43,697 bases of DNA from contig JAQGDQ010000270.1 of assembly GCA_030141605.1 (NCBI GenBank), forward strand, positions 231,793 through 275,489, in the 5' to 3' direction. Made by a program: the position numbers and the translations under genes. This stretch comes from Tubiluchus corallicola. Its lineage: Eukaryota > Animalia > Priapulida. Below the pieces are notes generated by a model. The model was given only the letters and a program-made list of their open reading frames with translations, ran no database searches and was not told the DNA's origin. Below are positions 2,494 through 43,581 of this stretch, one piece after another (the stretch's first letter is position 1; each line of letters starts with the position of its first letter).

Positions 2494-2636
2494 AACTAAT
2501 ATTGGAATTTATTAACTACTTATATTTTAAGTTGTAAATCCTCAACTAGAAGCGAACTGATTATTGAAGGTGTTAAGTTGCATTTTTTTATTTTCAAGGC
2601 TCGCATTGAGGATAAAGTTAACAAATAATGGCAAGG

Positions 2637-2779
2637 GGTCAATGTTTTTTTAAGTTCTTTTGTCTTGGTACAAAAGCACCAAAAGGTCGATGTTTTTTAT
2701 GCTCTTTTGTTTTGATGCAAGAGAGGTGAAAGGTCAATGTTTTTTTAAGTTCTTTTGTTTTGGTAGAAAATAGGCGAAA
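2637..2779 (+). repeat. Three degenerate 47-48 bp tandem units (end motif of the dispersed structured repeat)
   Basis: Units start with GGTC at 2637, 2685 and 2732; consensus approximately GGTCAATGTTTTTTAAGTTCTTTTGTYTTGRTACAAAAG..AAA; further units near 2995 and 4110-4209. Confidence 0.8.
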
Positions 2780-2998
2780 GGTCAAGCCTGTAAATTCTTT
2801 TGATGAAAAACTACGCTGTCGTCTTCGCTATCTTCTCAAAACTCGCTTTTTTTTAGAAAAAAGGCTCAGACAGTGATAAGATTTTTCGCTTCGTCTTTCG
2901 CTGTTTTTCTATCAAAAGCCTTTAAGGGCATTCCTTTTACTCGCTGTTTCGCTGTTTTCTAGTTAAGAGCTTTTAGTAGTTGCGGTTGTGTTTCAGGG
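2780..2998 (+). repeat. Dispersed structured repeat, part A, copy 1
   Basis: Near-identical to 4202-4370 (AAGCCTGTAAATTCTTTTGATGAAAAACTACGCTGTC...GCTCAGACAGTGATAAGATTTTTCGCTTCG). Confidence 0.9.
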
Positions 2999-3058
2999 TT
3001 TTTTTTAAGTTTTTTTGTTTTGATACAAGAGAGGCAAGTATCAAGCCTTTAGTGGTAT

Positions 3059-4070: not shown

Positions 4071-4109
4071 GGAAGCGGATTCCTAACTTTTGTATGACTT
4101 GGAAGTGGA

Positions 4110-4370
4110 TGGGTTTTTTAAGTTTTTTTGTTTTGGTAGAAAAGAGGCGAAAGGTCAAGGATTTTTTTAAGTTTTTTTGTCTTGATACAAAAGAACCAAA
4201 AGATCAAGCCTGTAAATTCTTTTGATGAAAAACTACGCTGTCGGCTTCGCTATCTTCTCAAAACTCGCCTTTTTTCAAAAAAAAAGGCTCAGACAGTGAT
4301 AAGATTTTTCGCTTCGCCTTTCGCTGTTTTCTTGTTAAGAGCTTTTAGTAGTGGTGGTTGTGTTTTAAGG
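4110..4370 (+). repeat. Dispersed structured repeat: two end units plus part A, copy 2
   Basis: Direct repeat of 2732-2998. Confidence 0.9.
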
Positions 4371-4698: not shown

Positions 4699-7209
4699 CT
4701 ATCTCAGGTATGGATAATTATAATATATACCCCAAATAGTGAGAAAATTCCAATCTTTATAAGTTTGCCCACTTTGCATCTCAGCTGTGTTTTTCCCTTG
4801 TATCTGTTCATGACTGGAGTCTGAGTCGTCATAGACACTACCGAAATAACTATCTTGTCCCGTTGTATTTTTGTCCCAGAAACACCATTTTACTGTCGTT
4901 CTACTGCTTGTGCTTTTTAAGTAACCTACCATCCCTCCTGACTGGTTTACAGCAGTGCTACTAACCCTTCCGACAGCGTAGCAGTGTTGTAGCAAGAAGG
5001 ATCCAGGATAGACGACATTGGCATACACGGCGCCAATTAAGCCACCAATACTAGTTTCTCCTGTTACACTTCCAGATGCATAACAGTTCTTTATTCTAGC
5101 AGTTATGTATCCACTTCCGTTGATTTCCCCTATAAGTCCACCGGCATAATTACCTAAGCAAGCTACCTCTCCCGAGGCGTAAGATCTCTCAACGTTTATT
5201 GTCGACACAGTCTCCCCTATCAGGCCTCCAACAGCATTATGGGCTTTTACCTTTCCTGTAGAGTAACTTCCTATTACTTGGACTGATAAATCAATGGAAG
5301 CAACAGAGCTCCCTACCAGGCCACCAACTCCCGAGGCTCTATCTCCCTCTACACTCACGCCACTATTACGGCTATCTTCGATAGCTGTTCCTTTTTTACA
5401 TAATCCCACTAGGCCACCAATAGAGGATGCGGCAAAAGTTTCCGATTTTATTTCACTTTCGTTATCTTTTGCAATAATATTGCATTTGGAGATACCCCCA
5501 TTGTAACTTACCCCTACCAAACCACCAACATAGCTTTTCCCATATATTTTCCCCACTTCTACGTTCAGGTCGGTTATTTCCCCGCCACTACCCAAACATC
5601 CAAATAGTCCTACATGATCACTACTGGACAAGGAAATATTGAGATTGTATATTGTGTTTCCCTCACCATCAAACTTACCTCTAAATGTATAGCTGTCATT
5701 AGGCGTACTAGAAGAATTAGAAGCATTGTCTCCAATATATTCTCCTATTGGCGTAAAGCCTTCAGAGGGGAGGCCTGCAGGGAATGCACCGCTACCTGTA
5801 GGTTGAGGCAGGCTTATATCGTTCTTCAGGTTATAATCTTTAGATAGATCATTCCTCATCATATATAAGTCCTGCCAGCTCCTTATATTTCCTGGCTCAT
5901 GCATTACGTGTCGAATGTATTCAAAAGTCTCAGATATACTACCATTATCAAAACTGAGAAATAACTCGAACGAAATATTTTCTGATGGAATATCACTTCT
6001 CCATTTTTCAGGGATAATCTCAGAACTAGATAAATATTCTCCGTCTTGGCTGTTAACCACAATATGTCCAGCCCCTAGTTCAATATAATTATCATTTATG
6101 TCTTTTACCTTTAGGGCGTAGGCATATGTAACATTATTATTCACATTACTCACCTTAAACAAATCTTTCGTTTTTGCATAATCTCCTACCCCTATACGAT
6201 GTTTGCTCTTACTATCCTCGGAGTAGCTATTAACTGTTAAACTGGGCTTGATAGTAGTTACTTTAATGGAATAGTCAACACTTATATTCTCATCCTGGGC
6301 TGTTACCGTGTATATCCTGTTACCAGAGAAAAAACTTTTACCATTATTAGTTACTGATGCATGTTCTGACATTTCAATATTAGGCTCTCCCAGCTCGTCT
6401 ATGTTTATACCCATAAGAACATCTAAAATAATTTCATTACTATCATGGTATATTTTACCTCCAATATCACTAATTAAATCATTACCCTCCCCTGCAGGGA
6501 ATACAAATTCGGTTATTTTTGCATCCTGGCTAGGAAGACCATTATCAACCTCTACACTAAAAGTTTCTTTTTTATTTTTATCTGCAGCAGTGACTTCGTA
6601 TTCTATCTTATTATAGAAGTTCTGAGCTATATTACTTGCCGGTGATATGGATGCACCTGCTGAGTATTCTATACGAGGTATTAAACCATCTCTATTTATG
6701 CCAAAAGGAATTGTTATACTGATAATATTATCTTTATCTGGAGTAGCAGAATAATCTTTATCCAGAGTATTATTATCTATCTGTTTAAACATAAAATTCG
6801 TAATTTCAGCCTTGTCACTAGCTACTTTTACATATACCTCGTAATCTTTTGTACTTTCATCTTCAGCTGTTACTGTATACGTTACTTCCTTATTATTGTC
6901 GAAATCGCGTACATCACCAACTCCGGGATATATAGTAGCGTTTTCATTTGCAAGCACAATCTCGGTGGCTGCCAGTGATGTAAGATCGGTTCCTTTAAGC
7001 ATGAGAACCTCTATTATATTGCGTCCTTCGGAGTTGCTGATAGTTCCGGTTACCCCGGCAAGTACAAACTTATCAATCGCTGTGTTCATCCCCTCTTCTA
7101 CTACTTTTACACTATAAGTAGTACTATTATTGCCTAGTTCTACAGCACACAACCATTCGATTAACACAAAGATATCAGGTATTTTACATTTATCTTGTAT
7201 TATGTTCAT
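4699..7209 (-). CDS. Large surface-type protein: repeated Ig-like (DUF5018-like) domains plus GLUG-motif beta-helix; probably 5'-truncated, usable start possibly 7089
   Basis: Repeated YTVTAED/YEVTAAD/YTVTAQD domains; many VGGLVG/IGGLIG GLUG repeats; WDKNTTGQ...WNFLTIW..YPYL end; no signal peptide. Confidence 0.8.
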   Translation of the reverse strand: MNIIQDKCKIPDIFVLIEWLCAVELGNNSTTYSVKVVEEGMNTAIDKFVLAGVTGTISNSEGRNIIEVLMLKGTDLTSLAATEIVLANENATIYPGVGDVRDFDNNKEVTYTVTAEDESTKDYEVYVKVASDKAEITNFMFKQIDNNTLDKDYSATPDKDNIISITIPFGINRDGLIPRIEYSAGASISPASNIAQNFYNKIEYEVTAADKNKKETFSVEVDNGLPSQDAKITEFVFPAGEGNDLISDIGGKIYHDSNEIILDVLMGINIDELGEPNIEMSEHASVTNNGKSFFSGNRIYTVTAQDENISVDYSIKVTTIKPSLTVNSYSEDSKSKHRIGVGDYAKTKDLFKVSNVNNNVTYAYALKVKDINDNYIELGAGHIVVNSQDGEYLSSSEIIPEKWRSDIPSENISFELFLSFDNGSISETFEYIRHVMHEPGNIRSWQDLYMMRNDLSKDYNLKNDISLPQPTGSGAFPAGLPSEGFTPIGEYIGDNASNSSSTPNDSYTFRGKFDGEGNTIYNLNISLSSSDHVGLFGCLGSGGEITDLNVEVGKIYGKSYVGGLVGVSYNGGISKCNIIAKDNESEIKSETFAASSIGGLVGLCKKGTAIEDSRNSGVSVEGDRASGVGGLVGSSVASIDLSVQVIGSYSTGKVKAHNAVGGLIGETVSTINVERSYASGEVACLGNYAGGLIGEINGSGYITARIKNCYASGSVTGETSIGGLIGAVYANVVYPGSFLLQHCYAVGRVSSTAVNQSGGMVGYLKSTSSRTTVKWCFWDKNTTGQDSYFGSVYDDSDSSHEQIQGKNTAEMQSGQTYKDWNFLTIWGIYYNYPYLR
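7167..7174 (-). promoter_or_regulatory. Possible -7 promoter box inside the first codons of the annotated GLUG ORF
   Basis: TATCTTTG on the minus strand, preceded by AT-rich DNA. Confidence 0.4.
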
Positions 7210-8525: not shown

Positions 8526-11500
8526 ATGACAAAACAGAAGAAATTTATCACCTGTGATGGCAATTATGCTGCATCTCATATTAGCTACATGTTTAGTGAG
8601 GTGGCATGTATTTACCCCATCACTCCTTCGTCACCAATGGCAGAAGTGGTAGATGAGTGGGCTGCAACCGGGCGCGAGAATATTTTTGGGCAACCTGTGC
8701 GTCTTGCGGAGATGCAGAGCGAGGGTGGAGCTGCCGGCGCTGTTCATGGCGCGTTACAATCTGGCGCATTGGCATCGACTTATACAGCTTCTCAGGGATT
8801 GTTATTGATGATCCCGAATATGTATAAGATTGCTGGGGAGCTATTGCCTACGGTTTTTCACGTTAGTGCGCGTACACTGGCATCTCAGGCACTGTCAATT
8901 TTTGGTGACCATAGTGATGTTTATGCTTGTCGTCAAACGGGGTTTGCGTTACTTGCTACTGGCTCGGTACAGGAGGTAATGGACTTGGGGGGTGTTGCTC
9001 ATCTCGCTACTCTTAAAACAAGAATTCCATTTCTACACTTTTTTGATGGTTTCCGCACTTCGCATGAGGTTCAGAAAGTTGAAGTACTGGAGAAGGAGGA
9101 TTTTCTACCACTACTCGATATGGAAGCCATCCAGTCTTTTCGCGATAGTGCACTGAATCCTGAGCATCCTGTTACTCGTGGTACAGCGCAGAATCCTGAC
9201 ATATTTTTCCAGGCGAGAGAGGCATCAAACAGGTTTTATGATGCTGTACCTGATGTTGTGGAGGAGTATATGCAGGATATATCTAGGATAACCGGTCGTG
9301 AGTACCATCCGTTTACATATTATGGTTCTAAAGATGCTGAGAATATAATTGTTGCTATGGGGTCTGTTACGGAGACTATACGTGAAACGATTGATTATAT
9401 GGCTGGTCAGGGGAAGAGTGTCGGGCTTGTTTCTGTGCATCTGTATCGTCCATTTTCTGAAAAATATTTTTTAAAAGTACTTCCTAAAAGCGTTAAGCGC
9501 ATTACTGTACTTGATCGCACAAAAGAGCCGGGTGCAAATGGAGAGCCGCTATATTTAGATGTGCGTGATATTTTCTACGGGAAGCAGAATGCTCCTGTTG
9601 TGATAGGTGGCCGTTATGGATTAAGCTCCAAAGAGACAACCCCTTCGCAGATAATATCAGTATATGAGAATCTTGAGATGGCAGAGCCAAAGAATGGTTT
9701 TACGCTGGGTATTATTGATGATGTTACATTTAAATCATTACCGTTAAAGCCGGAGGTTAAGGTGTCTCCGGATGGGCTTTACGAGGCAAAGTTTTATGGT
9801 TTAGGGTCGGACGGTACTGTTGGGGCAAATAAAAATTCAATTAAGATTATAGGTTCTGCAACCGATAAGTACTGTCAAGCATATTTTGCTTATGACTCCA
9901 AGAAGTCAGGAGGTTTCACAGCTTCGCATCTTCGTTTTGGGGATGAGCCTATTCGCTCTACATACTTGATTACTACGCCGGACTTTGTGGCGTGCCATGT
10001 TCAGGCTTATCTTACCCAGTATGATGTACTGAAAGGATTAAAGCGGGGTGGTTCATTTTTGCTTAATACAATTTGGGATGAGGGTGAGGTGAAAAAGCAT
10101 CTCCCCAATAGTATTAAGAGGTATCTGGCGAAGAATGATATTAAGTTTTATATTATTAACGGAACAAAGCTTGCTGTTGATATCGGGCTTGGGAACCGTA
10201 CAAATACTATAATGCAGTCTGCATTTTTTAAGGTAACGGAAGTGATACCTTATAGTCTGGCTGTAGATGAGATGAAGAGAGCCATTGAGAAATCGTATGG
10301 TGCAAAGGGAGAGAATATTGTTAACATGAATTTTGCCGCTGTTGATGCAGGAGGGTTACATGTTCGGCAGGTTGAAGTTCCTTCTGAGTGGTGCAGTATT
10401 AGCTCTGACGAGGGGGATGAAAATGATAAGCGCCCCGAGTTTATCAGCAAGTTTGTGGATGTCATTAATGCACAAAAAGGGGATGATCTGAAGGTGTCTG
10501 CATTTAGTGGTATTGAAGATGGAACGCTTCCTGCTGGGACTTCGGCGTATGAGAAGCGCGGTATCGCAGTGAGTGTCCCAGAGTGGGTGTCTGATAACTG
10601 TATTCAGTGTAATCAGTGTGCTTATGTGTGTCCTCATGCAGTGATACGCCCTTTCCTTATTGATGAGAAGGAGATGGCAGGTGTTCCTGAAGGGACGAAG
10701 GTTATAAAGGCAAATGGCAAACAGTTTGCCGGGCTTCAGTTTCGCATTCAGTTGAGTCCTCTGGACTGTACAGGGTGCGGGAATTGTGTTGATGTTTGTC
10801 CATCTAAAGAGAAAGCTCTTATTATGAAACCGTTGGATACTCAGGAGGCTGAGGTTGCTCGTTGGGAGTATTTCGACAGCAACGTCTCTTATAAAGATAA
10901 GCTGGTGGAAAAAAGTAAGAGTGTGAAGAATTCTCAGTTTGCTCAGCCTCTGTTTGAGTTTTCAGGTGCTTGTGCCGGTTGCGGAGAGACACCATATATC
11001 AAGCTTATTACCCAGCTGTATGGCGAGAGGATGCTTATAGCTAATGCAACGGGGTGTTCTTCAATTTATGGAGGTTCGGCTCCAGCAACCCCTTATTGTG
11101 AGCATAAGGAGTCGGGGTGTGGGCCGGCGTGGGCAAATTCTCTTTTTGAGGATAATGCTGAGTATGGGTTTGGTATGGCAGAGGGTATTATTTTCCACAG
11201 AGATCGTATTGAGGAGGTGATGAAGAGAGCGCTTAGCGATGGTGTTAGTGAAGAGGAGCGTGATGCTTTTACTAAATGGATAGAGGGTCGTGAGGATGCT
11301 GATGCTTCTGTTGAGTTGTCAGATAGAGTGCTTAAAGCAATAGATGGTAGTAGCACGTCACATGCTGCAGAGATTATGTCGTTAAAGCAGTATCTTATCA
11401 AGAAGTCGGTATGGATAATAGGTGGCGATGGATGGGCGTACGATATTGGCTATGGTGGAGTAGACCATGTGTTGGCTTCAGGGAAGGATGTAAATATACT

Positions 11501-12071
11501 GGTTTTGGATACAGAAGTTTACTCCAATACAGGAGGGCAGGCTTCCAAAGCGACACCTGTAGGGGCCGTTGCTAAGTTTGCTGCTTGTGGAAAACGTATC
11601 CGCAAGAAAGACCTGGGCGCTATATTCATGAATTATGGTTATATATACGTTGCACAAGTGGCAATGGGAGCTAGTCAGTCTCAGTATCTTAAGACTGTCA
11701 GGGAAGCGGAGGCTTTCCCCGGCCCGTCAATTATAATAGCCTACTCGCCATGTATAGCACATGGGTTAAAGGTATCAATGGGACGCACACAGGAGCAGGA
11801 GAAACGTGCTGTGGCTTGTGGGTACTGGCAACTATTTCGTTTTAATCCTCTGCTGGAGAACGAAGGGAAGAATCCATTTCAGCTGGATTCTAAAGAGCCG
11901 GACTGGAGCCTGTTTCAGAAGTTCCTTAACAGCGAGGTGAGGTATACTTCACTTAAAAAGTCATTTCCCAAGGAGGCAAATCAACTGTTTAGGGCTTCTG
12001 AAGAGGATGCCAAGTGGAGATATCGCTCATACCAGCGCATGGTGTCAATGGATTGGGTACTAGAGGAATAG
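8526..12071 (+). CDS. nifJ: Pyruvate:ferredoxin (flavodoxin) oxidoreductase
   Basis: YPITPS, QSEGGAAG, GLGSDGTVGANKN, two CxxCxxCxxxCP motifs, GGDGWAYDIG TPP motif. Confidence 0.98.
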   Translation: MTKQKKFITCDGNYAASHISYMFSEVACIYPITPSSPMAEVVDEWAATGRENIFGQPVRLAEMQSEGGAAGAVHGALQSGALASTYTASQGLLLMIPNMYKIAGELLPTVFHVSARTLASQALSIFGDHSDVYACRQTGFALLATGSVQEVMDLGGVAHLATLKTRIPFLHFFDGFRTSHEVQKVEVLEKEDFLPLLDMEAIQSFRDSALNPEHPVTRGTAQNPDIFFQAREASNRFYDAVPDVVEEYMQDISRITGREYHPFTYYGSKDAENIIVAMGSVTETIRETIDYMAGQGKSVGLVSVHLYRPFSEKYFLKVLPKSVKRITVLDRTKEPGANGEPLYLDVRDIFYGKQNAPVVIGGRYGLSSKETTPSQIISVYENLEMAEPKNGFTLGIIDDVTFKSLPLKPEVKVSPDGLYEAKFYGLGSDGTVGANKNSIKIIGSATDKYCQAYFAYDSKKSGGFTASHLRFGDEPIRSTYLITTPDFVACHVQAYLTQYDVLKGLKRGGSFLLNTIWDEGEVKKHLPNSIKRYLAKNDIKFYIINGTKLAVDIGLGNRTNTIMQSAFFKVTEVIPYSLAVDEMKRAIEKSYGAKGENIVNMNFAAVDAGGLHVRQVEVPSEWCSISSDEGDENDKRPEFISKFVDVINAQKGDDLKVSAFSGIEDGTLPAGTSAYEKRGIAVSVPEWVSDNCIQCNQCAYVCPHAVIRPFLIDEKEMAGVPEGTKVIKANGKQFAGLQFRIQLSPLDCTGCGNCVDVCPSKEKALIMKPLDTQEAEVARWEYFDSNVSYKDKLVEKSKSVKNSQFAQPLFEFSGACAGCGETPYIKLITQLYGERMLIANATGCSSIYGGSAPATPYCEHKESGCGPAWANSLFEDNAEYGFGMAEGIIFHRDRIEEVMKRALSDGVSEEERDAFTKWIEGREDADASVELSDRVLKAIDGSSTSHAAEIMSLKQYLIKKSVWIIGGDGWAYDIGYGGVDHVLASGKDVNILVLDTEVYSNTGGQASKATPVGAVAKFAACGKRIRKKDLGAIFMNYGYIYVAQVAMGASQSQYLKTVREAEAFPGPSIIIAYSPCIAHGLKVSMGRTQEQEKRAVACGYWQLFRFNPLLENEGKNPFQLDSKEPDWSLFQKFLNSEVRYTSLKKSFPKEANQLFRASEEDAKWRYRSYQRMVSMDWVLEE

Positions 12072-12099
12072 GCATTATATAAAGTATATACATGTTAGT

Positions 12100-12135
12100 G
12101 AAAAGCCCGGACGTAGTTTCGGGCTTTTCTGTTTT
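12100..12135 (+). terminator. Intrinsic terminator of nifJ
   Basis: GAAAAGCCCG-loop-CGGGCTTTTC followed by TGTTTT. Confidence 0.85.
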
Positions 12136-12336
12136 ACCCACCATATATGTTATGCTATCCTGTTTTTGCAAAGTGTAATGTTTAGAGAAAGTTGATAAAA
12201 GAGCCTCAGTTTACCGGTGCAGCGGGGTTTAGAAGAGAGCATTAGTAAAAGGATGAGTTTGGCAAATGCCTCAGTTTTTGTATATTTTAGAGAATTATGA
12301 TTAATTTGAGCGTATAATTTGAGTAAATAGACTACT

Positions 12337-13122
12337 ATGAAAAGGCGTAATTTTCTCCGTGTTACAGTGGTGGGCTCTGCCGTGGTAAGTGTATTGGCAT
12401 GTGGTACCACTCCTGTTTTATTTTCATCGAGGAAGCAGGTTTATGAGCTAAGGGAGTATGAGCTTGTTGCTCCTGAGCGACAAGAGCTTCTTGATAGGTA
12501 TTTTCAGTATGGGCTTATACCTGCTTTGAACAGAGACGGAATATCTGATGTAGGAGCGTTTAAAGAGATTGAGGCAGATAATCCAGCAAAGGTATATTTG
12601 CTAATTCCTTATCCTTCAGGAAAAAAGTTTTTTCAAATGGAGGAGAGGTTGAGCAAGGATAAGGCGTATGTCGAGCATCTCAAGATTTATGATGGTATAC
12701 CAGTTGAAGACCGGGTTTTTAGCCGTTATAAGATACACTTGCTGGAGGCTTTTGATGCTATTCCTATGCTTGAAAAGCCCATACCTGCGACAGAGGATAG
12801 GGTGTTTGAGTATCGTACCTATGAGAGTTATAGTGAGGATGCAGGAAGAAGAAAGATAGAGATGTTTAACAGGGAGGAGCTAGAGCTTTTTAGGCAGATA
12901 GGCCTGAGTCCGGTGTTTTTTGGTAAGGTGTTGGCGGGTGATGTCATTCCCGGGCTGTCCTATATGCTCTGTTTTCATAATATGCAGGAGATGGAGGAGA
13001 AGTGGGAGCGGTTTAGAAGTAGTAAAGAGTGGGGAGAGATGAAGGATAAGCCTGAGTACAACAATACCGTAAGTAAAGTGGTCAAGCGTTTTTTAAAACC
13101 ATTGTATTATTCCCAAATATAG
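12337..13122 (+). CDS. NIPSNAP family protein with twin-arginine signal
   Basis: MKRRNFL; two YELREY/FEYRTYES repeats; KIEMFN, PVFFG, FLKPLYYSQI end. Confidence 0.85.
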   Translation: MKRRNFLRVTVVGSAVVSVLACGTTPVLFSSRKQVYELREYELVAPERQELLDRYFQYGLIPALNRDGISDVGAFKEIEADNPAKVYLLIPYPSGKKFFQMEERLSKDKAYVEHLKIYDGIPVEDRVFSRYKIHLLEAFDAIPMLEKPIPATEDRVFEYRTYESYSEDAGRRKIEMFNREELELFRQIGLSPVFFGKVLAGDVIPGLSYMLCFHNMQEMEEKWERFRSSKEWGEMKDKPEYNNTVSKVVKRFLKPLYYSQI

Positions 13123-13204
13123 GGGGAGCTTTTGTGTTGGCTGTTGTTTTAAAAGTTTTATTTTACAGTTTTTAGACTGTTTGAAAGTTACTTCCCATCT
13201 CCTA

Positions 13205-13447
13205 GGTTAAGTTTAGCTTGTTTATTATTAATGATATATAGTTGGAAATCTAATGAGTTGCTGTGTCCCAATTTGCAATGATTATTGCAAATTCTGTGCA
13301 AAATCTTGTAGGTTAAGATAGGAAAATCGTTAGGTTACAATCAGATGAACCTACAAGTTCTGTGAAACAGAAAAAATTGTCCTTAAAGGGTTTTGAGAAA
13401 CACAGCGAAAAGCGAAGCGAAAAATCTTATTGCTGTCTAAGCTTTTT
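13205..13447 (-). repeat. Dispersed repeat: 3' half of part A joined to part B, inverted copy
   Basis: Reverse complement reads GCTTAGACAGCAATAAGATTTTTCGCTTCGCTTTTCGCTG...CTTGTAGGTTCATCTGATTG..CGATTTTCCTATC. Confidence 0.85.
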
Positions 13448-13519
13448 ATTATTGTATACCAGATCAAAACATACAAATAGTAAATTTTACTTCAACAAAA
13501 ACTAATTCATAATGGGTGA

Positions 13520-14230
13520 TTAATTAGCACGTATGAACGGTACGAAGCGTACAGGGAAAAGGTACTCTTTTTTCATTTTATTATTTTTATTTTTTGTAAT
13601 CAGCATAAGCATTTGTGTTTGTGATGGTGAGTCGACCGGGATAATCATTTTACCTCCCTTTTTCAACTGTTTTATAAGTGGGGGAGGTATTTGCTGAGCA
13701 GCGGCAGTTACCACTATTGCATCAAATGGTGCGTGTTCCTGCCAGCCTACATATCCATCGCCTATTTTTACCACGACATTATCGTACTCCATATTGTTTA
13801 GTCGTTTCATTGTAGCTTTTCCTAATGCCTCTATGATTTCAATTGTGTAGACTGTGTCAACTATTTCTGCCAACACAGCTGCCTGATATCCGGAACCTGT
13901 TCCTATCTCCAGTACTTTAAATCCTGGCTTAGGCTTAATCGCCTCAGTCATATAGGCTACTATGTATGGTTGTGAGATGGTTTGTCCATAACCAATTGGT
14001 AAAGGTGTGTCCTGGTATGCGGCTTCCTTATAGTATTCGGGTACAAACAAGTGGCGTTCAACACTCATCATGGCTTTCAATACCGTTCTGTTGGATACAT
14101 CTCTGCTTTTTATTTGATGGTCCACCATTGCTTTTCTGCGTAATTCAAATGTATCCTGCCCATATCCGACAAGTGTAAGGCTTATGGAGTATACTGATAG
14201 TAGTACAATTATTGATAGTTTTGTCCTCAT
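13520..14230 (-). CDS. pcm: Protein-L-isoaspartate O-methyltransferase
   Basis: GQTISQP, VLEIGTGSGYQAA, APFDAIVVTAA, VRFVP. Confidence 0.96.
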   Translation of the reverse strand: MRTKLSIIVLLSVYSISLTLVGYGQDTFELRRKAMVDHQIKSRDVSNRTVLKAMMSVERHLFVPEYYKEAAYQDTPLPIGYGQTISQPYIVAYMTEAIKPKPGFKVLEIGTGSGYQAAVLAEIVDTVYTIEIIEALGKATMKRLNNMEYDNVVVKIGDGYVGWQEHAPFDAIVVTAAAQQIPPPLIKQLKKGGKMIIPVDSPSQTQMLMLITKNKNNKMKKEYLFPVRFVPFIRAN

Positions 14231-14467
14231 TTGCTTGTGATTTTACAGTTGTATGCTTTAGAAAGCAGCAAAGTCATGTAAGTTTTTGTCCGAAGTATCT
14301 TGGTGTTAAAGCTATTTTAACATCGTGCAAGATAACCTTTTCATCGAATAAACGGAACAGTTTGAAGCACAAAGGGTATATATTCTGTTTTTAATATAAT
14401 TACCAAAGAAATAATACGATACTTTTTGCTAATATGCTTTTTTTCAAAGAGAAAATTGAGGGCATTA

Positions 14468-14499
14468 TTTGGAATTCACTGTAAAAGTATATAGGTTTG
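14468..14499 (+). promoter_or_regulatory. sigmaA promoter of the aspartate kinase-metY-metA operon
   Basis: TTTG (14468-14471), 20-nt spacer, TAGGTTTG (14492-14499): Bacteroidota -33/-7 consensus. Confidence 0.7.
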
Positions 14500-14639
14500 T
14501 CTTAGCAATATATCTCCTTCTGCGATGTGTCTGTTTTAGGCTATGAGAAGAGCCTACTGATTGGGCTTTATAAAGTTTTTACATCATGCAGATAATATGG
14601 TGAGATGTAAAGTGTCCTAATGAAAAATAGAAAAAGAGA

Positions 14640-14750
14640 ATGAGAGAGTTGATCACGACATCCGCGACTACGAAAGGTAATAAAAGTTTAACCATTTTTA
14701 CCTTGCTCTCTTATATGTGCCTCTTTATAGTTTCCATGTACATGTTATAG
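14640..14750 (+). CDS. Putative regulatory leader peptide, 36 aa, Thr- and Met-rich
   Basis: MRELITTSATTKGNKSLTIFTLLSYMCLFIVSMYML*, immediately followed by hairpin TCTTCAGT/ACTGAAGA (14751-14781). Confidence 0.55.
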   Translation: MRELITTSATTKGNKSLTIFTLLSYMCLFIVSMYML

Positions 14751-14846
14751 TCTTCAGTCTTATTTTTTTATGTACTGAAGAGATTGTAGAAGCTTGTTTT
14801 TGTAAGCTCCAATAGTTTTATTCGCCTATTTTAGTACTGCACTTAA

Positions 14847-16238
14847 ATGATTATTATGCCAAGAGTTGTTGTAAAGGTTGGTGGCTCCAACCTGAAGTAT
14901 AAGAAGGATATTCATCGCGTTATTGAAGTAATAAAGAGTTATGACCAGCCTCTTATAGTTGTTATTTCCGCATTTTATGGAGTAACTGATTATCTTATAA
15001 GTTCACTGGAAGAGGCACCTCTTAATGAGGGTATGGCTAAGAAGGTAGCTAGATGCTTGTATGATCAAAAGAAAGAGATACTGCAGGAGCTTGTGGCTGA
15101 TAAGTCTGATCGAGAGTCTATATTAAACAGTATATCAGAGGTGTTGCTGGATTTGGAGAAGTACCTTCATGGGGTTGCATTGACGGGTGATGCTTCACGG
15201 GCGTTGGAGGATAATATTCTATCTTTTGGGGAGAGATTGTCAGCTACATTACTACAAGGGGTTTTAGCAGGTGAAGGGTTACAGGCTGAGGTTGCTCTGC
15301 CCGAGAATATAGGGCTATATACAAATGGGGAGTTTGGAAATGGGACTATTGATTTTGCGCGGTCGACTTCACCTGTGAGAGATGCTCTTGCAAAGAAGCA
15401 GATATTTATTGTCCCCGGATTTTACGGGATATCCGAAAGCGGCAAGGTTACCCTTCTTGGGAGGGGAGGTACTGATTATGCAGCGGCATCAATAGCACGA
15501 TGTGTAGGAGCCTCTTCATTAGATATATGGAAGGATGTTGACGGGTTTCAGAGTGCCGACCCCAAGCTTATTGATAATCCTGTAAGAATAGATAGGCTCA
15601 CCTATACAGAGGCTTCGGAGCTGGCCTATTTTGGAGCGAAGATACTTCACCCCAGGACGGTGGAACCTCTTTCTGCTCCACATATTCCTATTCGTATATT
15701 TAATATACGTGGTAAGCTGAACGCAGCCTCACCTCTTTCTGTAATCAACTCTGAGTCTTATGTTCGTGAGGGTATAATCAAGAGTGTTGCGTATAGTGAT
15801 GAGTTCGGCATTCTCAAATTGATGGGGCCTGGTGTTGGGCTAAAGCCAGGTATCCTGGCTAAGGTTGCCACTGCTTTGTGTAATGAAAATATAAATATAA
15901 ACTCCGTTATCACATCACAAATCTCAATAAACATGCTGCTGGCAAAAAAAGATCTGCGCACTGCTTATGAAGTTGTCAGTTCAGTTGATCTTGCTACTGT
16001 TGGCGAAGTGGTGATGAATGAGAGTGTGTCTGTGGTTGCCGCTATTGGCGATGGGCTGATTGATAATTATGGAGTTGCAGCACGCATTTTTTCTTCAATG
16101 GCTGAAAGAGGTATAAATGTTATTATGAGTTGTTCTGGGGCTTCATCTGTGGTAAGTTATTTTCTTGTAGATGAGGCAGACAGGACGGAGGCCATCAGGG
16201 CTGTGCATGATGAGTTTTTTGGGTTGGCAAGAGGGTGA
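14847..16238 (+). CDS. Aspartate kinase with C-terminal ACT domains
   Basis: VVKVGGSN, ILSFGERLS, TLLGRGGTDY, ELAYFGAKILHP. Confidence 0.95.
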   Translation: MIIMPRVVVKVGGSNLKYKKDIHRVIEVIKSYDQPLIVVISAFYGVTDYLISSLEEAPLNEGMAKKVARCLYDQKKEILQELVADKSDRESILNSISEVLLDLEKYLHGVALTGDASRALEDNILSFGERLSATLLQGVLAGEGLQAEVALPENIGLYTNGEFGNGTIDFARSTSPVRDALAKKQIFIVPGFYGISESGKVTLLGRGGTDYAAASIARCVGASSLDIWKDVDGFQSADPKLIDNPVRIDRLTYTEASELAYFGAKILHPRTVEPLSAPHIPIRIFNIRGKLNAASPLSVINSESYVREGIIKSVAYSDEFGILKLMGPGVGLKPGILAKVATALCNENININSVITSQISINMLLAKKDLRTAYEVVSSVDLATVGEVVMNESVSVVAAIGDGLIDNYGVAARIFSSMAERGINVIMSCSGASSVVSYFLVDEADRTEAIRAVHDEFFGLARG

Positions 16239-20544: not shown

Positions 20545-22105
20545 TGTAAATCTTCAGCTTAATTCGGACAAATTGGTTTAAAAATTAAGAGAGACATTTC
20601 TTAAATTATAACCAATAAAAACGAGTAAGATTAAGGCAAAAAAACAGACTACCGAACAAAAGGTAAAAGAGATTAAGAGACACCCGAGGAAGAAGTATTC
20701 AGCTGAAGAAAAAATCAGGATTGTACTAGAGGGCATGCGTGGCGAATATAGCATTGCCGAGTTATGCCGAAAAGAAGGCATCAACGCGAACCTTTGTTAC
20801 AAGTGGAGTAAAGATTTTATGGAAGCTGGCAAAAAACGCCTTGCAGGTGACATTAAGCGGGAAGCTACATCGGGCGAAGTAAACGGTTTAAAGAACGAGA
20901 ACCACGACCTAAAGCAGTTTGTAGCAGAGCTGAGTTTGGAAGTACGCATGCTTAAAAAAAAGCTTAACTGGAACCGAGTAACTTATAAATATATGAGACG
21001 AAGCGCCAGTGAAAAGATGGAAATTATCCGTATTGTTCAAGATTCGGAATTCGGAGTTAAGCGCACACTTGAAGAGCTTGACATCAGCCGAAGTACCTTT
21101 TACGAGTGGTACAAACGCTTCCTTGAGGGAGGATATGATGCACTCAAGCCCAAGCCGGTAAAACGCAAAAAGTTTTGGAACAAGATATCCAACAAAGAAC
21201 GAGAACTGGTTTTAGACACCGCTTTGTAACGTACAGACTTATCGCCTAGGGAACTAGCCCACCACATCACCGACCATCAAAAGTGGTTTATCAGCGAAAC
21301 CAGCGTATATCGGATTCTCAAAGAGCAAGTGCTAATCACATCTCCTGCGTGGCTTTTAATGGCTGCATCCGATGATTTTAAAGATAAGACCACGCGTGTG
21401 CACCAGCAATGGCAAACCGATTTCACCTACTTAAAAATCATTGGATGGGGCTGGTATTATTTGGCTACCGTAATGGACGATTATTCAAGGTATATCGTCA
21501 CCTGGGAGCTTTGCCAAAGCATTGAGTCGGCCGATGCCAAGCATGTTATTCAAAAGGCTTTACATACGGCCAAAATACCTGCAGGCGATTGTCCCAGGTT
21601 GCTCTCCGATAATGGAGCGTGCTACATATCAAACGAGTTTCAAAGCTTTTTAAAAGACACCAAAATGGGACATTTACGTGTAGCCCCATACCACCCTCAA
21701 ACACAAGGGAAAATTGAGCGTTACCACCGCACCATGAAAAATCAGGTAAAGTTGGATAACTACTACTTTCCTGATGAACTAATGACGGTTCTACAGGAGT
21801 TTGTATATAATTACAACAACCACCGGTATCATGAATCACTCAAGAATGTTACACCTGCCGACGTGTATTTTGGAAGGCAAAAACAGTTACTGGGCAATCG
21901 TGAAAACATTAAAATAAAAACGCTAAATGAAAGAAGAAAAAGGAATCAGAAAATCGCAGTGTATCACTTTTGATTTATTGAAAACTCTGCGAGTTTCGAA
22001 CAAGTCAACAGTGAATTATCATCACCATAAAAAAGAGAATTTGAATTATAAAACTATCTCTTAACTTTAAGCATCAATTTGTCCAATAAGTTTTGAAGTT
22101 AAACA
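20545..22105 (+). mobile_element. IS3-family insertion sequence (1561 bp), inactivated
   Basis: Imperfect terminal IRs TGTAAATCTTCAGCTTAATTCGGACAAATTG / TGTTTAACTTCAAAACTTATTGGACAAATTG; no target duplication. Confidence 0.93.
20621..21973 (+). pseudogene. IS3-family transposase OrfA/OrfB pseudogene
   Basis: KYSAEEKIRIVLEGMRGEYSIAELCRKEGI HTH; DDE core WQTDFT, SDNG, QGKIER; ACG at the expected start; in-frame TAA at 21227. Confidence 0.9.
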
Positions 22106-28486: not shown

Positions 28487-28630
28487 ATTAATGTTTGTGA
28501 TAGATGATTTGCATTTTATTGGGGAGCTATACAATAGCTTAATATTTTATGTTTTTTAACAACTTTTAATATATACAATTTTTTCTGTTTTTCTCGTTTA
28601 ATCTTACAAGTGAGTATTATAATTAAACCT

Positions 28631-31057
28631 ATGAAAAGAAAACTTATGAAAAAACTATCTGCACAGGCTATACAAACCGTATTTATATTCGTAATAATAT
28701 TAACCCCTTCATGTAAGAAGAAAGATTTAGATATAAAGTATACTGGGAACACCATAGATAGATTTAGTTTTGAGATAAGTGATGTGGAAACATACGATGC
28801 ACAAATAAGCAAGACTCCCAATGAGAATAATCAGTATCTTATAACTTTTACAGCTCCAGTGGGGACAGATATAAGTAATTTAACAGCTAAAGTATCTTTC
28901 TCAACAGGAGCGACAATAGACCCTAATCCCGAAAGTATAAGAGATTACACCAGCTCTATAGAATGTGTGGTAACTTCTGGAATTGGAGAGGAAAAAATAT
29001 ATTTGATAGTAGTAGATGTGTCTTTGTCAACAGATAAAGAAATACTAAGCTTTGCTTTTATGGTAAGTGATAATGATGAAGTGCTGAGTGTAGATATAGA
29101 AGGATATATAGTAGATAATACAGATATATTGGCAACCTTGCCAAGTGGCACGAGTAAAGCCTCACTTATACCAACTATTACCTTTAAAGGCAGTAGCGTC
29201 AGTCCTGCCAACAAAGTTGAACAAAATTTCACAGGCCCCATAACTTACACAGTAGAAGCAGAAGATGAAAGCACGAAAGATTATAATGTGACTGTGGATG
29301 TAGCATCTTCTACTGACAAAGAAATTACATTCTTTATTTTCAGGAAAGATGATAATAGTGAATTAAATAGAGGCGTTATAGGAAATGTATCTAATGAAGA
29401 TATGACAGTAAAGGCGGATGTCCCATATGGTGTAGACCTGAGTTCATTAGTACCTACAATTGGTTTTAGAGGAAGTGGCATTAGCCCCGCCAGTAAGTCA
29501 CCGAAGGACTTTACAGTACCTGTAATTTATACCGTAAGTGCAGGAGATCATAGCACAATACCTTATACAGCAACAGTAGTGTCCGAGCCTGTTCTTAAGG
29601 CAGTAAGTCACTATAAAGGAGAAAACCGTATAGGGGCAGGAGATTTTACAAAAGAGGACTTGTTTGAAATAAGTAACATAAAAGATGGAGAGTGGAATTA
29701 CCTTTTGACAATACCGTCCTCCTCCTCTTCTATGTCAAACCAAACTATCATAGTAGAAAATAATAGAGCATATGTGTCTGGTAACGTTTTAACAGTAGAT
29801 GATTGGAGATTAATTGCTGAAGGAGATTTTAACATTTCTTTGACTTTATCCAACACAGAAATAGCAGAAGCAGTGTTTAATTACACTATTCCTAAGGAGC
29901 AGTATGAAGTGAAAAGCTGGCAAGACTTACAAAGAATAGATTATGATTTAGGTGGAGAGTATACATTAAAAAATAATATAGAATTTCCAGAACCACTTGT
30001 TGATGACTTTCCTTCCAGTGGTTTCACTCCTTTAGGTGATATATATAATGCTTTTACGGGAATATTTGAAGGGGGCAATTATAAATTAAGTAATTTTTAT
30101 ATATACGGAGAAGGGGGAAAAGATGTTGGCCTCTTTGGAGCAATACTTGGTGCTCAAATAAAAAACTTAAAAATAGAAACTTCAGATGAAGGAGTAACCG
30201 GGCAGTCACATATTGCTTGTTTAGTTGCAAATAATTTGGTAGGAACTATAAGCAATTGTGGTGCAAAAGGGATGGTGATAGAAGCTGACGGAGAAGGAGG
30301 CTCTACGGGACTTGTTGGGGGTCTTGTCGGGTACAATAATGGAACTGTAACAGATAGTTATTTTGAAGGGACTGTAATAGGATATGACTATGCTGGAGGT
30401 CTTGTGGGGATGAATGTTGCAGGAAGCGTAAGTCATAGCCATTTTGCAGGGGACATGCAAGGAGTTGCCAGCAAGATTGGAGGATTGGCAGGAGTAAGTG
30501 ATTTTAACTCTAACATAACTAATAGCTATGCTATAGGAAGTATAGCAGGTGGAGGCTTGTATGTTGGAGGGTTAGTTGGAGATAATGAAAGTTCTAATAT
30601 AGAAAACAGTTACGCCGTAGTAAATGTAGATGGAAATGCGAGTAGTGTTGGAGGTTTAGTAGGGGTTAATAGAAAGAGTAGTTCAATAAGTAATAGTTAT
30701 GCTAAGGGAAATCTAATAGGTAATCAAATGGTTGGAGGAATTATAGGGTTAAATGATAGCACTGGAGAGATAACAAACTGCTATGCTGCAGGAAGAGTAG
30801 AAGGGTTAAGTTTTATAGATACGTTTTTAGGAGGGCTGGTAGGGAAAAATGACAATGGTGCAGTAACTGATTGCTATTGGGATAAAGAGACAACAGAACA
30901 ACTAACTTCTGACGGTTCAGATGATTCATATGGCAAGACCACAAATGAAATGCAAGAAGAGACAACCTTTACAGACTGGGATTTTTCTACCATTTGGGAC
31001 ATAAATGCTACAGTTAATGAAGGTTATCCATTTTTAAAGAATGTGGATGGGCAGTAA
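28631..31057 (+). CDS. Surface lipoprotein: three Ig-like (DUF5018-like) domains plus GLUG-motif beta-helix
   Basis: ATG at 28631 or 28646; lipobox LTPS-C then KKKD; YTVEAED/YTVSAGD repeats; many VGGLVG repeats; YWDKETTEQ..WDFSTIW..YPFL end. Confidence 0.88.
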   Translation: MKRKLMKKLSAQAIQTVFIFVIILTPSCKKKDLDIKYTGNTIDRFSFEISDVETYDAQISKTPNENNQYLITFTAPVGTDISNLTAKVSFSTGATIDPNPESIRDYTSSIECVVTSGIGEEKIYLIVVDVSLSTDKEILSFAFMVSDNDEVLSVDIEGYIVDNTDILATLPSGTSKASLIPTITFKGSSVSPANKVEQNFTGPITYTVEAEDESTKDYNVTVDVASSTDKEITFFIFRKDDNSELNRGVIGNVSNEDMTVKADVPYGVDLSSLVPTIGFRGSGISPASKSPKDFTVPVIYTVSAGDHSTIPYTATVVSEPVLKAVSHYKGENRIGAGDFTKEDLFEISNIKDGEWNYLLTIPSSSSSMSNQTIIVENNRAYVSGNVLTVDDWRLIAEGDFNISLTLSNTEIAEAVFNYTIPKEQYEVKSWQDLQRIDYDLGGEYTLKNNIEFPEPLVDDFPSSGFTPLGDIYNAFTGIFEGGNYKLSNFYIYGEGGKDVGLFGAILGAQIKNLKIETSDEGVTGQSHIACLVANNLVGTISNCGAKGMVIEADGEGGSTGLVGGLVGYNNGTVTDSYFEGTVIGYDYAGGLVGMNVAGSVSHSHFAGDMQGVASKIGGLAGVSDFNSNITNSYAIGSIAGGGLYVGGLVGDNESSNIENSYAVVNVDGNASSVGGLVGVNRKSSSISNSYAKGNLIGNQMVGGIIGLNDSTGEITNCYAAGRVEGLSFIDTFLGGLVGKNDNGAVTDCYWDKETTEQLTSDGSDDSYGKTTNEMQEETTFTDWDFSTIWDINATVNEGYPFLKNVDGQ

Positions 31058-40763: not shown

Positions 40764-42470
40764 ATGGCAAATTATTATACAGATAACAAAAGTTTAAAGT
40801 TTCATTTGTCACACCCTATGATGCAGAAGCTTATAGCGTTGAAAGAGCAGGGGTTTGAGGACAAGGATAAGTTTGATTATGCTCCTGTGGATGTAGAGGA
40901 TATGATGGATAGTTATGAGCAGGTTCTTGAGATAGTGGGTGAGATAAGTGGAAGTATTATTGCTCCTAATGCAGAGGGAATTGATGCAGAGGGGCCGGAG
41001 GTGATCAAGGGGCGTGTGAAGTACGCTGCCGGGACACAGGAGAATATAGATGCATTGGTGAGTGCGGGATTGATGGGGATTACCCTTCCTCGCAAGTATG
41101 GCGGTCTAAATTTTTCGCTTATTCCTTATGTTATGAGTGCGGATATTGTCTCTCGGGCTGATGCCGGATTTGTTAATATATGGGGGTTACAGGATTGTGC
41201 AGAGACACTTAATGAGTTTGCATCTGATGACCAGAAGGAGCGTTTTCTGCCACGTGTTTCGGCTGGTGAAACCATGGCAATGGATCTTACGGAGCCTGAT
41301 GCCGGCTCAGACTTGCAGGCTGTACAGCTGAAAGCTACTTATGATGAGGACAGGGGTAAGTGGTTATTGAACGGAGTTAAGCGTTTTATAACTAATGGCG
41401 ATGGGGATATATCCCTCGTGCTTGCCCGCTCAGAAGAGGGTACTAGAGACGGGCGCGGACTCTCTATGTATGTTTATGATAAGCGGGATGGCGGTGTAAC
41501 TGTTCGCCGTATTGAGCATAAGATGGGAATTATAGGTTCACCTACCTGTGAGCTTGTTTTCAAAGATGCTCCTGCTGAGCTGGTCGGTTCCCGCAAGATG
41601 GGGTTGATTAAGTATGTCATGGCGTTGATGAATGGTGCGCGTTTAGGAATAGCAGCACAGTCTGTGGGGCTATCTGAGGCGGCATATCAGGAGGCGCTGA
41701 AGTATGCAAAAGAGCGCAATCAGTTTGGAAAAGCAATTATTAAGTTTCCTGCGGTCTATGAGATGTTATCTGTAATGAAAGCAAAGCTTGATGCATCGAG
41801 AAGTTTGTTGTATGAAACAGCACGGTTTGTAGATATATATAAGACATATCAGCACATTTCTGGAGCGCGCACTCTTGAGAGGGAGGAGCGTCAGGAGATG
41901 AAGAAGTATCAGAGGCTTGCTGATATTTATACTCCATTGGTAAAGGGGATATCTTCTGAGTATTGTAATGAGAATGCATATGATGCGGTGCAGATTCATG
42001 GTGGTTCAGGTTTTATGAAAGACTATCCCGTAGAACGTATTTATCGCGATGCACGCATCACCTCAATTTATGAGGGTACTACCCAGTTACAGGTTGTGGC
42101 CGCTATTCGTGGTGTAACTACTGGCGGCTACCTTAATCAGATAAGGGAGTATGAGAAGGAGCCTTTGTCGGCGGAACTGGAGGGTTTGAGGAAGACACTT
42201 ATGGCTATGACAAAGGATTATGAAGAGGTGGCAAATAAAGTGGTAGAGAGTGAAGATAGCGAGTTTATCGATTTTCATGCGCGAAGGTTGGTAGAGATGG
42301 CTGGCTATATTATTATGGGCTACTTGCTTACGCTGGATTCTAATCGTGATATGGACAATTTACGCTCGGCAAGTGTGTATGTGAAGATGGGCAGGAGTGA
42401 AGTGAAGTCCAGAGCAGAGTTTATCAGGAATTCCGTACTCGAAGAGGTTGGGCATTTCTATAAGTACTGA
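40764..42470 (+). CDS. Acyl-CoA dehydrogenase (Etf-associated)
   Basis: LTEPDAGSD, LNGVKRFIT, ERNQFGK, QIHGGSGF, IYEGTTQLQ. Confidence 0.95.
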   Translation: MANYYTDNKSLKFHLSHPMMQKLIALKEQGFEDKDKFDYAPVDVEDMMDSYEQVLEIVGEISGSIIAPNAEGIDAEGPEVIKGRVKYAAGTQENIDALVSAGLMGITLPRKYGGLNFSLIPYVMSADIVSRADAGFVNIWGLQDCAETLNEFASDDQKERFLPRVSAGETMAMDLTEPDAGSDLQAVQLKATYDEDRGKWLLNGVKRFITNGDGDISLVLARSEEGTRDGRGLSMYVYDKRDGGVTVRRIEHKMGIIGSPTCELVFKDAPAELVGSRKMGLIKYVMALMNGARLGIAAQSVGLSEAAYQEALKYAKERNQFGKAIIKFPAVYEMLSVMKAKLDASRSLLYETARFVDIYKTYQHISGARTLEREERQEMKKYQRLADIYTPLVKGISSEYCNENAYDAVQIHGGSGFMKDYPVERIYRDARITSIYEGTTQLQVVAAIRGVTTGGYLNQIREYEKEPLSAELEGLRKTLMAMTKDYEEVANKVVESEDSEFIDFHARRLVEMAGYIIMGYLLTLDSNRDMDNLRSASVYVKMGRSEVKSRAEFIRNSVLEEVGHFYKY

Positions 42471-42681
42471 TGACAAAGAGTAGTAGTTTTGGGAAGTGTA
42501 TACATGGTGTGAAACTCTAATAGAACGCTTTTTTATTCGGGTTTAACCGGGAAAGGGTAGAGGGTATGCAATTATGCATGCGTCTTCTTTAGTGTGTAGG
42601 TTTAGAAACATTTAGGTTTTTACACCTTAGTTGGCAGTCATGCTGAAAAAACAAGACCTATAACTAAAAAAACACATAAAT

Positions 42682-43385
42682 ATGAACAAATTGATTTCCC
42701 TAAAAAGTTGAATTTATTGACAGGAATAATAACCTTATTTTTTCTCTCTTCATGTTCAACAGAAAATGATTGCAATACACTTTTCGGATTTAATGGAAGT
42801 GTGAAATCTTCCTTAGAGTGGGTTTATGAAGCTGAGGAGAAATTTGGAAAGTGGGAAAATGGAGATATAGAGTATTATGGTCATAGTCTCATAAAGTTTG
42901 ACGAAAAAGGAAACTACACTGAAATAAGTCAATTAGATGATGATGGAGAGTTGACAAGGAAAATAATTCCTAATCGAGAAAATGGTCAAATAATAGAAGA
43001 AGTTTTTTATAACGAAGATGGAGAAAAGGAAAGTCTTATAAAGATTAACTTCATTAGCACCAATGAAATTGAGACAGAATCATTTGATAATAATGGAGAA
43101 AAAGTTGGTGGTGGAAAACTCTTTAGAGAAAACGGAAAAAATGTGAAATCTGTTTTTAACCAAGACAATGAAAATACGACTATAACGGAATGGGAATATG
43201 ACGAAAATGGAAATCAAATTTCTCAAAAAATGACTGACCAAAAGGGAGAAATAGTTTTTTACCAGAAATATGAATATATCGAGTTTGATGAAAAAAATAA
43301 TTGGACAAGAAGACTTATTTATGAGGAAGGTAATAGTATGACTCCTAAAAACATTACGATAAGAGAGATAGAATATTACAAATAA
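42682..43385 (+). pseudogene. Cassette-borne lipoprotein with YD/RHS-like repeats; probable frameshift just after the ATG
   Basis: ATG at 42682 is out of frame with 42708..43385 by one base (repair gives MKQIDFPKKLNLLTGIITLFFLSSC); FDEKGN, YDENGN, FDEKNNW, REIEYY motifs. Confidence 0.65.
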
Positions 43386-43394
43386 AGCACGAAC

Positions 43395-43581
43395 TGCCAA
43401 CATTTTGTATAGTGCATAGGGCGGAAATGCTGTATTTGAAACATTTGCGCTTTCTTCAACCTCGCCGAAGCGCAGCTTCGACGATTAGTCAGATTGCAGG
43501 TGTCAAACCTGCGCTTCGGCTACTTAGTGGTTTGACAGGAAAGTGTTTTCTATTGCCCTACGCACCATACAATTTACCGTT
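43395..43581 (+). other. attC-like recombination site, about 190 bp
   Basis: TGCCAAC inverse core; arms TTGTATAGTGCATAGGGC (43405-43422) and GCCCTACGCACCATACAA (43555-43572) pair at 16/18; GTT at 43579. Confidence 0.75.

Follow-up and report, generated by a model that had tools for sequence, protein, structure and literature searches.

The last 1.1 kb of the window (the whole stretch of 43,697 nucleotides that was analysed) is occupied by a unit that opens with GTTGGCAG at 42630, in which the gene ends at 43385 and a hairpin finishes at 43581. Judged from its sequence, this unit is a real, mobile cassette, and with a probability of roughly three in four we read 42631–43579 as a single cassette (a gene, then a hairpin) of a Bacteroidota integron-like system, which would have been inserted at a secondary site by a tyrosine recombinase devoid of the IntI-specific insertion and cutting the folded bottom strand at G/TT (the slash marks the cut point). 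Comparison with other genomes provides the ends and the polarity, identifies the hairpin family, ties it to arrays that begin with a co-oriented recombinase and a TATA-N5-GTT platform, and reveals scattered single cassettes in the same genomes. The features are collected in Table 1.

Table 1. Positions of the cassette features and of the neighbouring gene in the window.
Feature	Position	Strand	Basis
Left junction, putative secondary target site	42621..42632	+	TACA at -9 to -6, core G/TT at 42630-42632; matrix rank; L001 homology begins at 42630
R' half of cassette site, at cassette 5' end	42630..42644	+	Complements 43386-43401 with one bulge; first 14 bases as in L001
R'' half, ending in AAC (43399-43401)	43386..43401	+	L001 homology stops here
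3-nt spacer and left arm (43405-43422)	43402..43422	+	Fixed A at arm positions 7 and 12; family covariation
Inner 57-nt stem-loop of the long (180-190 nt) site class	43464..43520	.	Inverted repeat I1; pairing conserved in 10 family members
Right arm (43555-43572), 6-nt spacer and right core G/TT (43579-43581)	43555..43581	+	Fold; most full-length family copies end homology at GTT
Cargo gene, 225 aa from TTG	42708..43385	+	Predicted lipoprotein, weak RHS/YD-like relatives
Acyl-CoA dehydrogenase, last gene of upstream ETF operon (context only)	40764..42470	+	Pfam

The initial annotation of this DNA had proposed a gene bounded on the left by a G/TT sequence and, right after its stop codon, by the complement of that sequence, followed by a palindrome with 16/18 outer arms that ends in GTT, and each of these elements was recovered. 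The left end of the cassette is GTTGGCAGTCATGCT, with its first base at 42630, the TAA stop codon (43383–43385) is followed directly by AGCACGAACTGCCAAC, and the hairpin extends for 183 nt from AAC (43399) to GTT (43581), with 16 of 18 outer-arm positions paired; the right end of the cassette presumably lies at 43579. In-silico removal of the cassette yields the product that had been foreseen, CCTTAG/TTTATG. Circularization, which had been expected to rebuild a full hairpin site, did so in the model: with the two G/TT cores joined by script, the circle junction folds at −50.9 kcal/mol versus −39.5 kcal/mol for the linear site, which is 11 kcal/mol better, and complementarity past the core covers 11 of 12 bases with a single bulge, a level reached by none of the 421 other AAC triplets on the + strand. 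The linear hairpin attains its −39.5 kcal/mol on the bottom strand (z of −4.5, equalled by none of 200 shuffles) and −36.4 kcal/mol on the top strand. A structural scan and the covariance model described below each picked out only the 43399–43581 site in the window (E of 3e-4; next 0.31), and an Rfam scan of the window gave no matches.

The site has the core of an attC-type site, namely a conserved AAC/GTT and complementary R' and R'' around one gene; its R boxes, TGCCAAC and GTTGGCA, depart from the consensus RYYYAAC/GTTRRRY. As had been observed for the outer arm, the arms pair without gaps and carry no extrahelical bases near L'', with A.C mismatches at positions 7 and 12 instead, and the one bulged base of the modelled circle lies outside the R box. 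Two further descriptions stood in part. The site had been called oversized at about 190 bp; it measures 183 nt and belongs to the long class of a family in which sites are usually 122–126 nt. The switch in base composition at both ends is present, modestly on the left (45% GC in the upstream gene, 37% in the intergenic region and 31% in the cassette body) and, on the right, as read from 116 bases only (24%).

The cargo protein matches no Pfam family; it has 12 homologues with 27–89% identity, its Atlas neighbours are unnamed Bacteroidota proteins with RHS_repeat in 25–27% of the members of some clusters, and a lipobox-like LSSC can be read from its sequence. No further homologue was found in 401 Bacteroidia genomes at E 1e-25, in viral contigs or in plasmids. 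The gene is one base shorter near 42703 than its homologue in a metagenome contig (L001), and the ATG at 42682 is thus out of frame, the open frame running from the TTG. Sequencing run X1 agrees with the window on this difference; a sequencing error at the gap may still account for it, because X1 may be the source of the window and one-base errors are numerous in sister runs. Upstream of the cassette, at 42564–42581, there is a terminator-like stem, and expression of the cargo gene by read-through from the upstream operon is doubtful. This ETF/acyl-CoA dehydrogenase operon is that of a Bacteroidales-type bacterium, the best relatives of the dehydrogenase (79–80% aa) being of the Prolixibacteraceae-type Bacteroidales, and the contig is likely to represent a bacterial symbiont or contaminant co-sequenced in the assembly. 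Elsewhere in the window, paralogous large GLUG/DUF5018 surface proteins are encoded on opposite strands (4699–7209 and 28610–31057), a short intergenic repeat family of the TAAGTTCTTTTG type occurs in several copies (2600–3050 and 4100–4250), and an IS3-type transposase pair adjoins a truncated SusD-like gene (20735–21973).

Evidence of movement comes from L001, the only close locus in the metagenome scan, which is 89% identical to the window over 775 bases. The similarity begins exactly at the left end (G/TTGGCAG) and stops at the AAC(A) of R'', and the flanks of L001 consist of unrelated genes, unlike those in the window. Since one gene thus occurs with identical exact ends in another genome, it is regarded as a mobile gene cassette. 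The hairpin of L001 is another one, of 85 nt, whose best local match to the window hairpin has a score of 19 that was reached by 24 of 500 shuffles. In run X1, two small low-depth contigs carry R'' and the arm start, or the hairpin, behind different genes, and one of them joins a different gene to the window hairpin exactly at 43399. Relatives carrying the gene without these ends had been named as counter-evidence; L001 has the exact ends, but they are missing from a homologue in G035 (70% identity) and from six distant homologues (L002–L007), and the cargo gene family is therefore not always a cassette. An empty site was sought at 80 upstream-gene loci (best 80% aa; 11 of 64 scan parts) and in 251 Bacteroidales genomes (best 72% nt) and was not found because no close relative is present among the searched genomes. 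No circle joints appeared in the contigs of three runs from one sample, the possible source, and contigs speak neither for nor against circles.

The hairpin itself was found in two of the 251 Bacteroidales genomes, G120 and G031. G120, a complete genome in one 4.08-Mb contig, holds 24 matches, 13 of them near full length (72–85%), nine in an array at 1.87–2.04 Mb and four outside it; one further copy is in G031. The absence of similar palindromes linked to unrelated cargo had also been named as a point against a cassette; in the arrays, the hairpin family adjoins unrelated genes. The G120 array starts 67 bases behind a 381-aa tyrosine recombinase and runs in the same direction, and a further genome, G004, is arranged likewise, the two regions read containing 104 sites. 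The covariance search that had been suggested for the window site was carried out with a model built from 21 short-class hairpin types rather than from that site alone, and it uncovered further sites in four genomes. In G120, where 150 of 913 candidates were scored, the model gave 85 sites, of which 51 belong to the array cluster (one of these lying just upstream of the recombinase) and 34 are spread over 19 further locations; it gave 49 in G001 (Prolixibacter bellariivorans), 22 in G031, two in G005 and none in G002 and G035. A search of phage records for the hairpin gave no match. In G120 (C1, 1997603–2036022), a hairpin of the 183-nt class lies in two halves about 38 kb apart, split by genes that appear phage-like by eye, and the G004 arrays (L121 and neighbours) contain 15 repeats of a 480-bp cassette that has no clear long ORF and stands first behind the recombinase.

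Family sites fall mostly at 122–126 nt, and a long class of 180–190 nt carries the inner stem-loop. A derivation of the long site from the short one by one clean 57-nt insert is attractive by eye and was set aside, since two alignments place the gap elsewhere. In all 26 hairpin types the arms pair gap-free, and an A.C mismatch (G.T on the bottom strand) occupies arm position 7 in 24 and position 12 in 22, two of the exceptions being shifted by one base; the seed scan left wobbles unpenalized and fixed neither their position nor their kind. The spacers, 3 nt on the left and 5–6 nt on the right, give an asymmetry of 2–3 nt in 26/26 types (3 and 6 nt in the window), and in computed folds the bottom strand is the more stable in 25 of 26. 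Two-sided changes occur in 14 of 15 arm pairs across the 21 types, and 96% of cells pair, levels reached by none of 500 shuffles and set against 29–36% in slid controls, in a test that is favoured by the structure having been derived from the same sequences.

The recombinases that head the arrays of this family in other genomes match PF13495 and PF00589, and on TIGR02249 the score is 188 against a cut-off of 265, in two stretches. In an alignment with VchIntIA, 68 IntI residues span 26 in the recombinase, and the spacing from the catalytic R to HxLR is 91–92 aa in 30 of 32 recombinases (two unparsed) versus 133–134 in two IntI; the IntI-specific insertion is absent from these proteins, and the mover of the window cassette is probably not an IntI. 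In a quick tree, to which long-branch warnings apply, IntI form their own clade (99) and the cassette recombinases do not form one resolved clade. The best sequence matches of the catalytic domain are archaeal XerA (PDB 4a8e, 5hxy), and two Bacteroidota Xer-like proteins have a similar R–HxLR spacing of 96–97 aa; unlike Xer, the cassette recombinase shares a SAM_4 core-binding domain with IntI, has an extra N-terminal domain and heads cassette arrays. The N-terminal 75 residues have a confident predicted fold (pLDDT 89), with weak matches to DUF5710 in seven of 21 proteins (best 5.7e-05) and to HARP in two of 21 (best 0.0017). The model superimposes on the N-terminus of UvsW with a Z of 6.3 (rmsd 2.1, 58 aligned residues), tied by CASTOR2 (Z 6.5), with SMARCAL1 HARP at Z 3.6, and Foldseek returned nothing under E 0.001 for it; that a HARP-like domain helps the recombinase to read the hairpin is a guess. 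Related recombinases were matched in 79 of 151 sampled Bacteroidia genomes, the weaker matches of which may be other recombinases. A platform ending in TATA-N5-GTT stands behind 28 of 31 recombinases, by a pattern that was written after seeing the data, with a few rows out of register and L253 left out, and the first cassettes of arrays follow this platform and not a hairpin.

These observations bear on whether the locus is an ordinary integron cassette (SALIN) with an atypical attC, one that a true IntI inserted at an attG site. The likeness is considerable: a G/TT-bounded gene with a downstream hairpin, a bottom-strand bias (here from computed stability), arrays behind a platform and single cassettes at secondary sites are common to both systems. 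In the available text of the respective papers, GWT sites throughout genomes are targets of cassette insertion by IntI and lone cassettes are frequent (10.1101/2022.09.11.507474), and some attC sites recombine without extrahelical bases (PMC5027507). G001, moreover, combines a lone true IntI with its 49 sites, which form small scattered clusters, and has no strong match to the cassette recombinase, only a partial one (C12:22452–22910) upstream of a site cluster. However, no site was found within about 13–16 kb on either side of that IntI, and the arrays of the hairpin family are headed by insertion-less recombinases. Classical attC sites are described with 2–3 extrahelical bases, 5–6-nt spacers, lengths of 57–141 bp and the R-box consensus given above (same part of PMC5027507), whereas the system here has no extrahelical bases, two fixed mismatches and spacers of 3 by 5–6 nt, and the window site is 183 nt long with R boxes off consensus. 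The restored site TTTATGTTA lacks the right motif of attG, CRGM at +6 to +9. The array recombinase differs from IntI in lacking the insertion, in having about 100 extra N-terminal residues and in pointing into the array. In the accessible parts of the literature, integron function is said to require the insertion (PMC8138268), recombinases that lack it and occur close to attC were not accepted as IntI (PMC4889954), and IntegronFinder surveys gave almost no complete integrons in Bacteroidetes (PMC9024848); further literature on known systems comprises PMC8352920, PMC11523902 and PMC12901181. We consider a SALIN unlikely. The IntI-type geometry that had been recognized in the initial annotation thus holds for the order of gene and downstream site, and the mover is probably another enzyme.

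For our preferred reading, the left junction should be a secondary target. On the platform matrix it scores −6.5, below all 28 training sites, and is therefore not a platform; a platform stump at this position is ruled out by the same score. Of 29 dispersed clusters examined in G120 and G001, 15 had an assignable left end; two of these were dropped as hairpin remnants and 13 were used. TAYA occupies −9 to −6 in nine of these 13 junctions, against a background of 1.0–1.2% (15 of the window's 1517 GTT triplets and 69 of the 5750 in the loci themselves). The motif was recognized post hoc, and the G001 junctions include several that are alike. On a matrix of the 13 other-genome junctions, from which the window was excluded, TTTTACACCTTA/GTT of the window ranks third among its 1517 GTT triplets, and the left junction of L001 misfits, with a score of −8.5. 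The ranking supports insertion of the window cassette at what would be a relaxed copy of the platform core. Insertion at TAYA-N5-GTT parallels the attG insertion by IntI described in the available part of 10.1101/2022.09.11.507474, with a different motif: secondary sites here share TAYA upstream of the cut, unlike integron attG. The locus could instead be the remnant of a platform or a small array, with the recombinase and other cassettes lost or lying beyond the window end. No recombinase was found among the 23 of 29 long ORFs scanned in the window, in line with the earlier remark that neither integrase nor array is nearby, which for arrays covers the upstream side only; the window stops 116 bases past the site, and the platform motif, too, has TAYA-N5-GTT at its core. 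Against such a remnant stand the low platform score, the 159 bases between the dehydrogenase stop and the junction, which hold no recombinase tail, the T that follows the right core, a base seen there in 0% of 143 mostly array sites, and the single site that the model finds in the window. This alternative appears improbable.

Complementarity alone leaves the unit undefined, because the gene has R' and R'' on its two sides regardless of which hairpin accompanies it. Between cassette bodies that are at least 95% alike, the downstream hairpin type is kept in 116 of 116 pairs and the upstream type in 56 of 116, in pairs that are not independent, as they come from about ten clusters in two genomes with one dominant hairpin type in G004. 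The unit is therefore the gene with its downstream hairpin, cut at G/TT, and a hairpin-first polarity is ruled out by the same comparison. The downstream hairpin is shared in ten of 11 pairs at 85–95%, the exception being the window and L001, and in seven of 37 pairs at 70–85%; hairpins are thus replaced on a slower clock. In G120 (C1, 1.867–1.985 Mb; L176–L181, L185), an IS91-like element, comprising a transposase-like gene and a small tyrosine recombinase (named by eye), lies directly after the R'' AAC at ten array sites, parting gene from hairpin, and the element end precedes two dispersed sites too. Insertion of this kind after AAC is a possible route to hairpin exchange. That the gene from GTT to AAC might move alone, among hairpins that are separate resident or independently mobile repeats, would fit the interval shared by the window and L001, whose hairpins are unrelated, the ten insertions after AAC and the change of gene at 43399 in the X1 contig, yet it is made highly improbable by the constancy of the downstream hairpin in near-identical pairs and in those at 85–95%, and by first cassettes that follow a platform.

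The closest published system is rAID-1 of gut Bacteroidales, which the available part of 10.1101/471110 describes as integron-like, without giving there the cut site, the anatomy of the hairpin, any dispersal or a rule for targets; some of the site anatomy may already be contained in its motif figure S4 and tables. Common to rAID-1 and the system here are an XerD-like tyrosine recombinase, low-GC genes that follow it in one direction, and integron-like repeats between the genes. As defined in the same part, rAID-1 has a 5' recombinase more than 44% identical to BF9343_RS08045 and, behind it, at least two co-directional genes of at most 41% GC; the window, with one cassette and no recombinase, departs from this layout, and the G120 and G004 arrays are co-directional. 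The G120 recombinase is 49% identical over 273 aa to that of an rAID-1-like Parabacteroides distasonis plasmid record (L274), in which 10828–15906 contains seven sites of 42–46 nt with an A/TT core, a TATAAATAA/ATT platform and R-complementary immunity-gene cassettes. These gut-type sites contrast with the 122–190 nt and G/TT of the system here, and the window cargo is not an immunity gene. Model R1 gave no site in L274, the short sites of which were found by pattern instead. The long-site form also occurs on a plasmid of Chryseobacterium sp. SNU WT5 (L270:11974–22106), with a platform and five sites, broken by IS110 and a group II intron. A literature search that reached few subscription papers returned no mechanistic paper on this system. 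We assign the system to a long-site, dispersed variant of the rAID-1 type, outside the classical attC/IntI family and integron-like in working at a secondary site. The suggestion that a little-described system of Bacteroidota scatters single cassettes agrees with the exact-ended homologue and with the 34 of 85 G120 sites outside the main array, with the correction that the system is partly in print as rAID-1, going by the accessible part of that paper. To the rAID-1 type, this locus adds the secondary-target motif and hairpin exchange.

From these comparisons, we infer all of the recombination chemistry. A cassette would leave its array in circular form, with R' paired to R''; the recombinase would read the single-stranded hairpin through the two fixed G.T wobbles and the asymmetric spacer, and not through extrahelical bases; the circle would then be joined to the chromosome at a GTT with TAYA in front of it, as in a relaxed version of the platform motif; and in one lineage, that of the window or of L001, the hairpin may have been replaced at AAC by a slower process. 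More tentatively, and at somewhat less than even odds, Bacteroidota may possess a second integron class, in which hairpins are recognized via fixed G.T wobbles by a recombinase that has a HARP-like domain but no insertion and that seeds single cassettes over the chromosome at predictable TAYA-N5-GTT sites, and in which rarer cuts at the R'' AAC exchange hairpins.

The locus provides three testable rules: the cut point, the off-platform target motif and a natural hairpin swap at AAC. If the proposed second class is real, cutting at AAC would be a direct route to re-tagging, and perhaps to creating, cassettes, the origin of which is open for all integrons. Single genomes hold from 49 to more than 100 sites, and if integron chemistry can spare the IntI insertion, a large gene-capture system is being missed.
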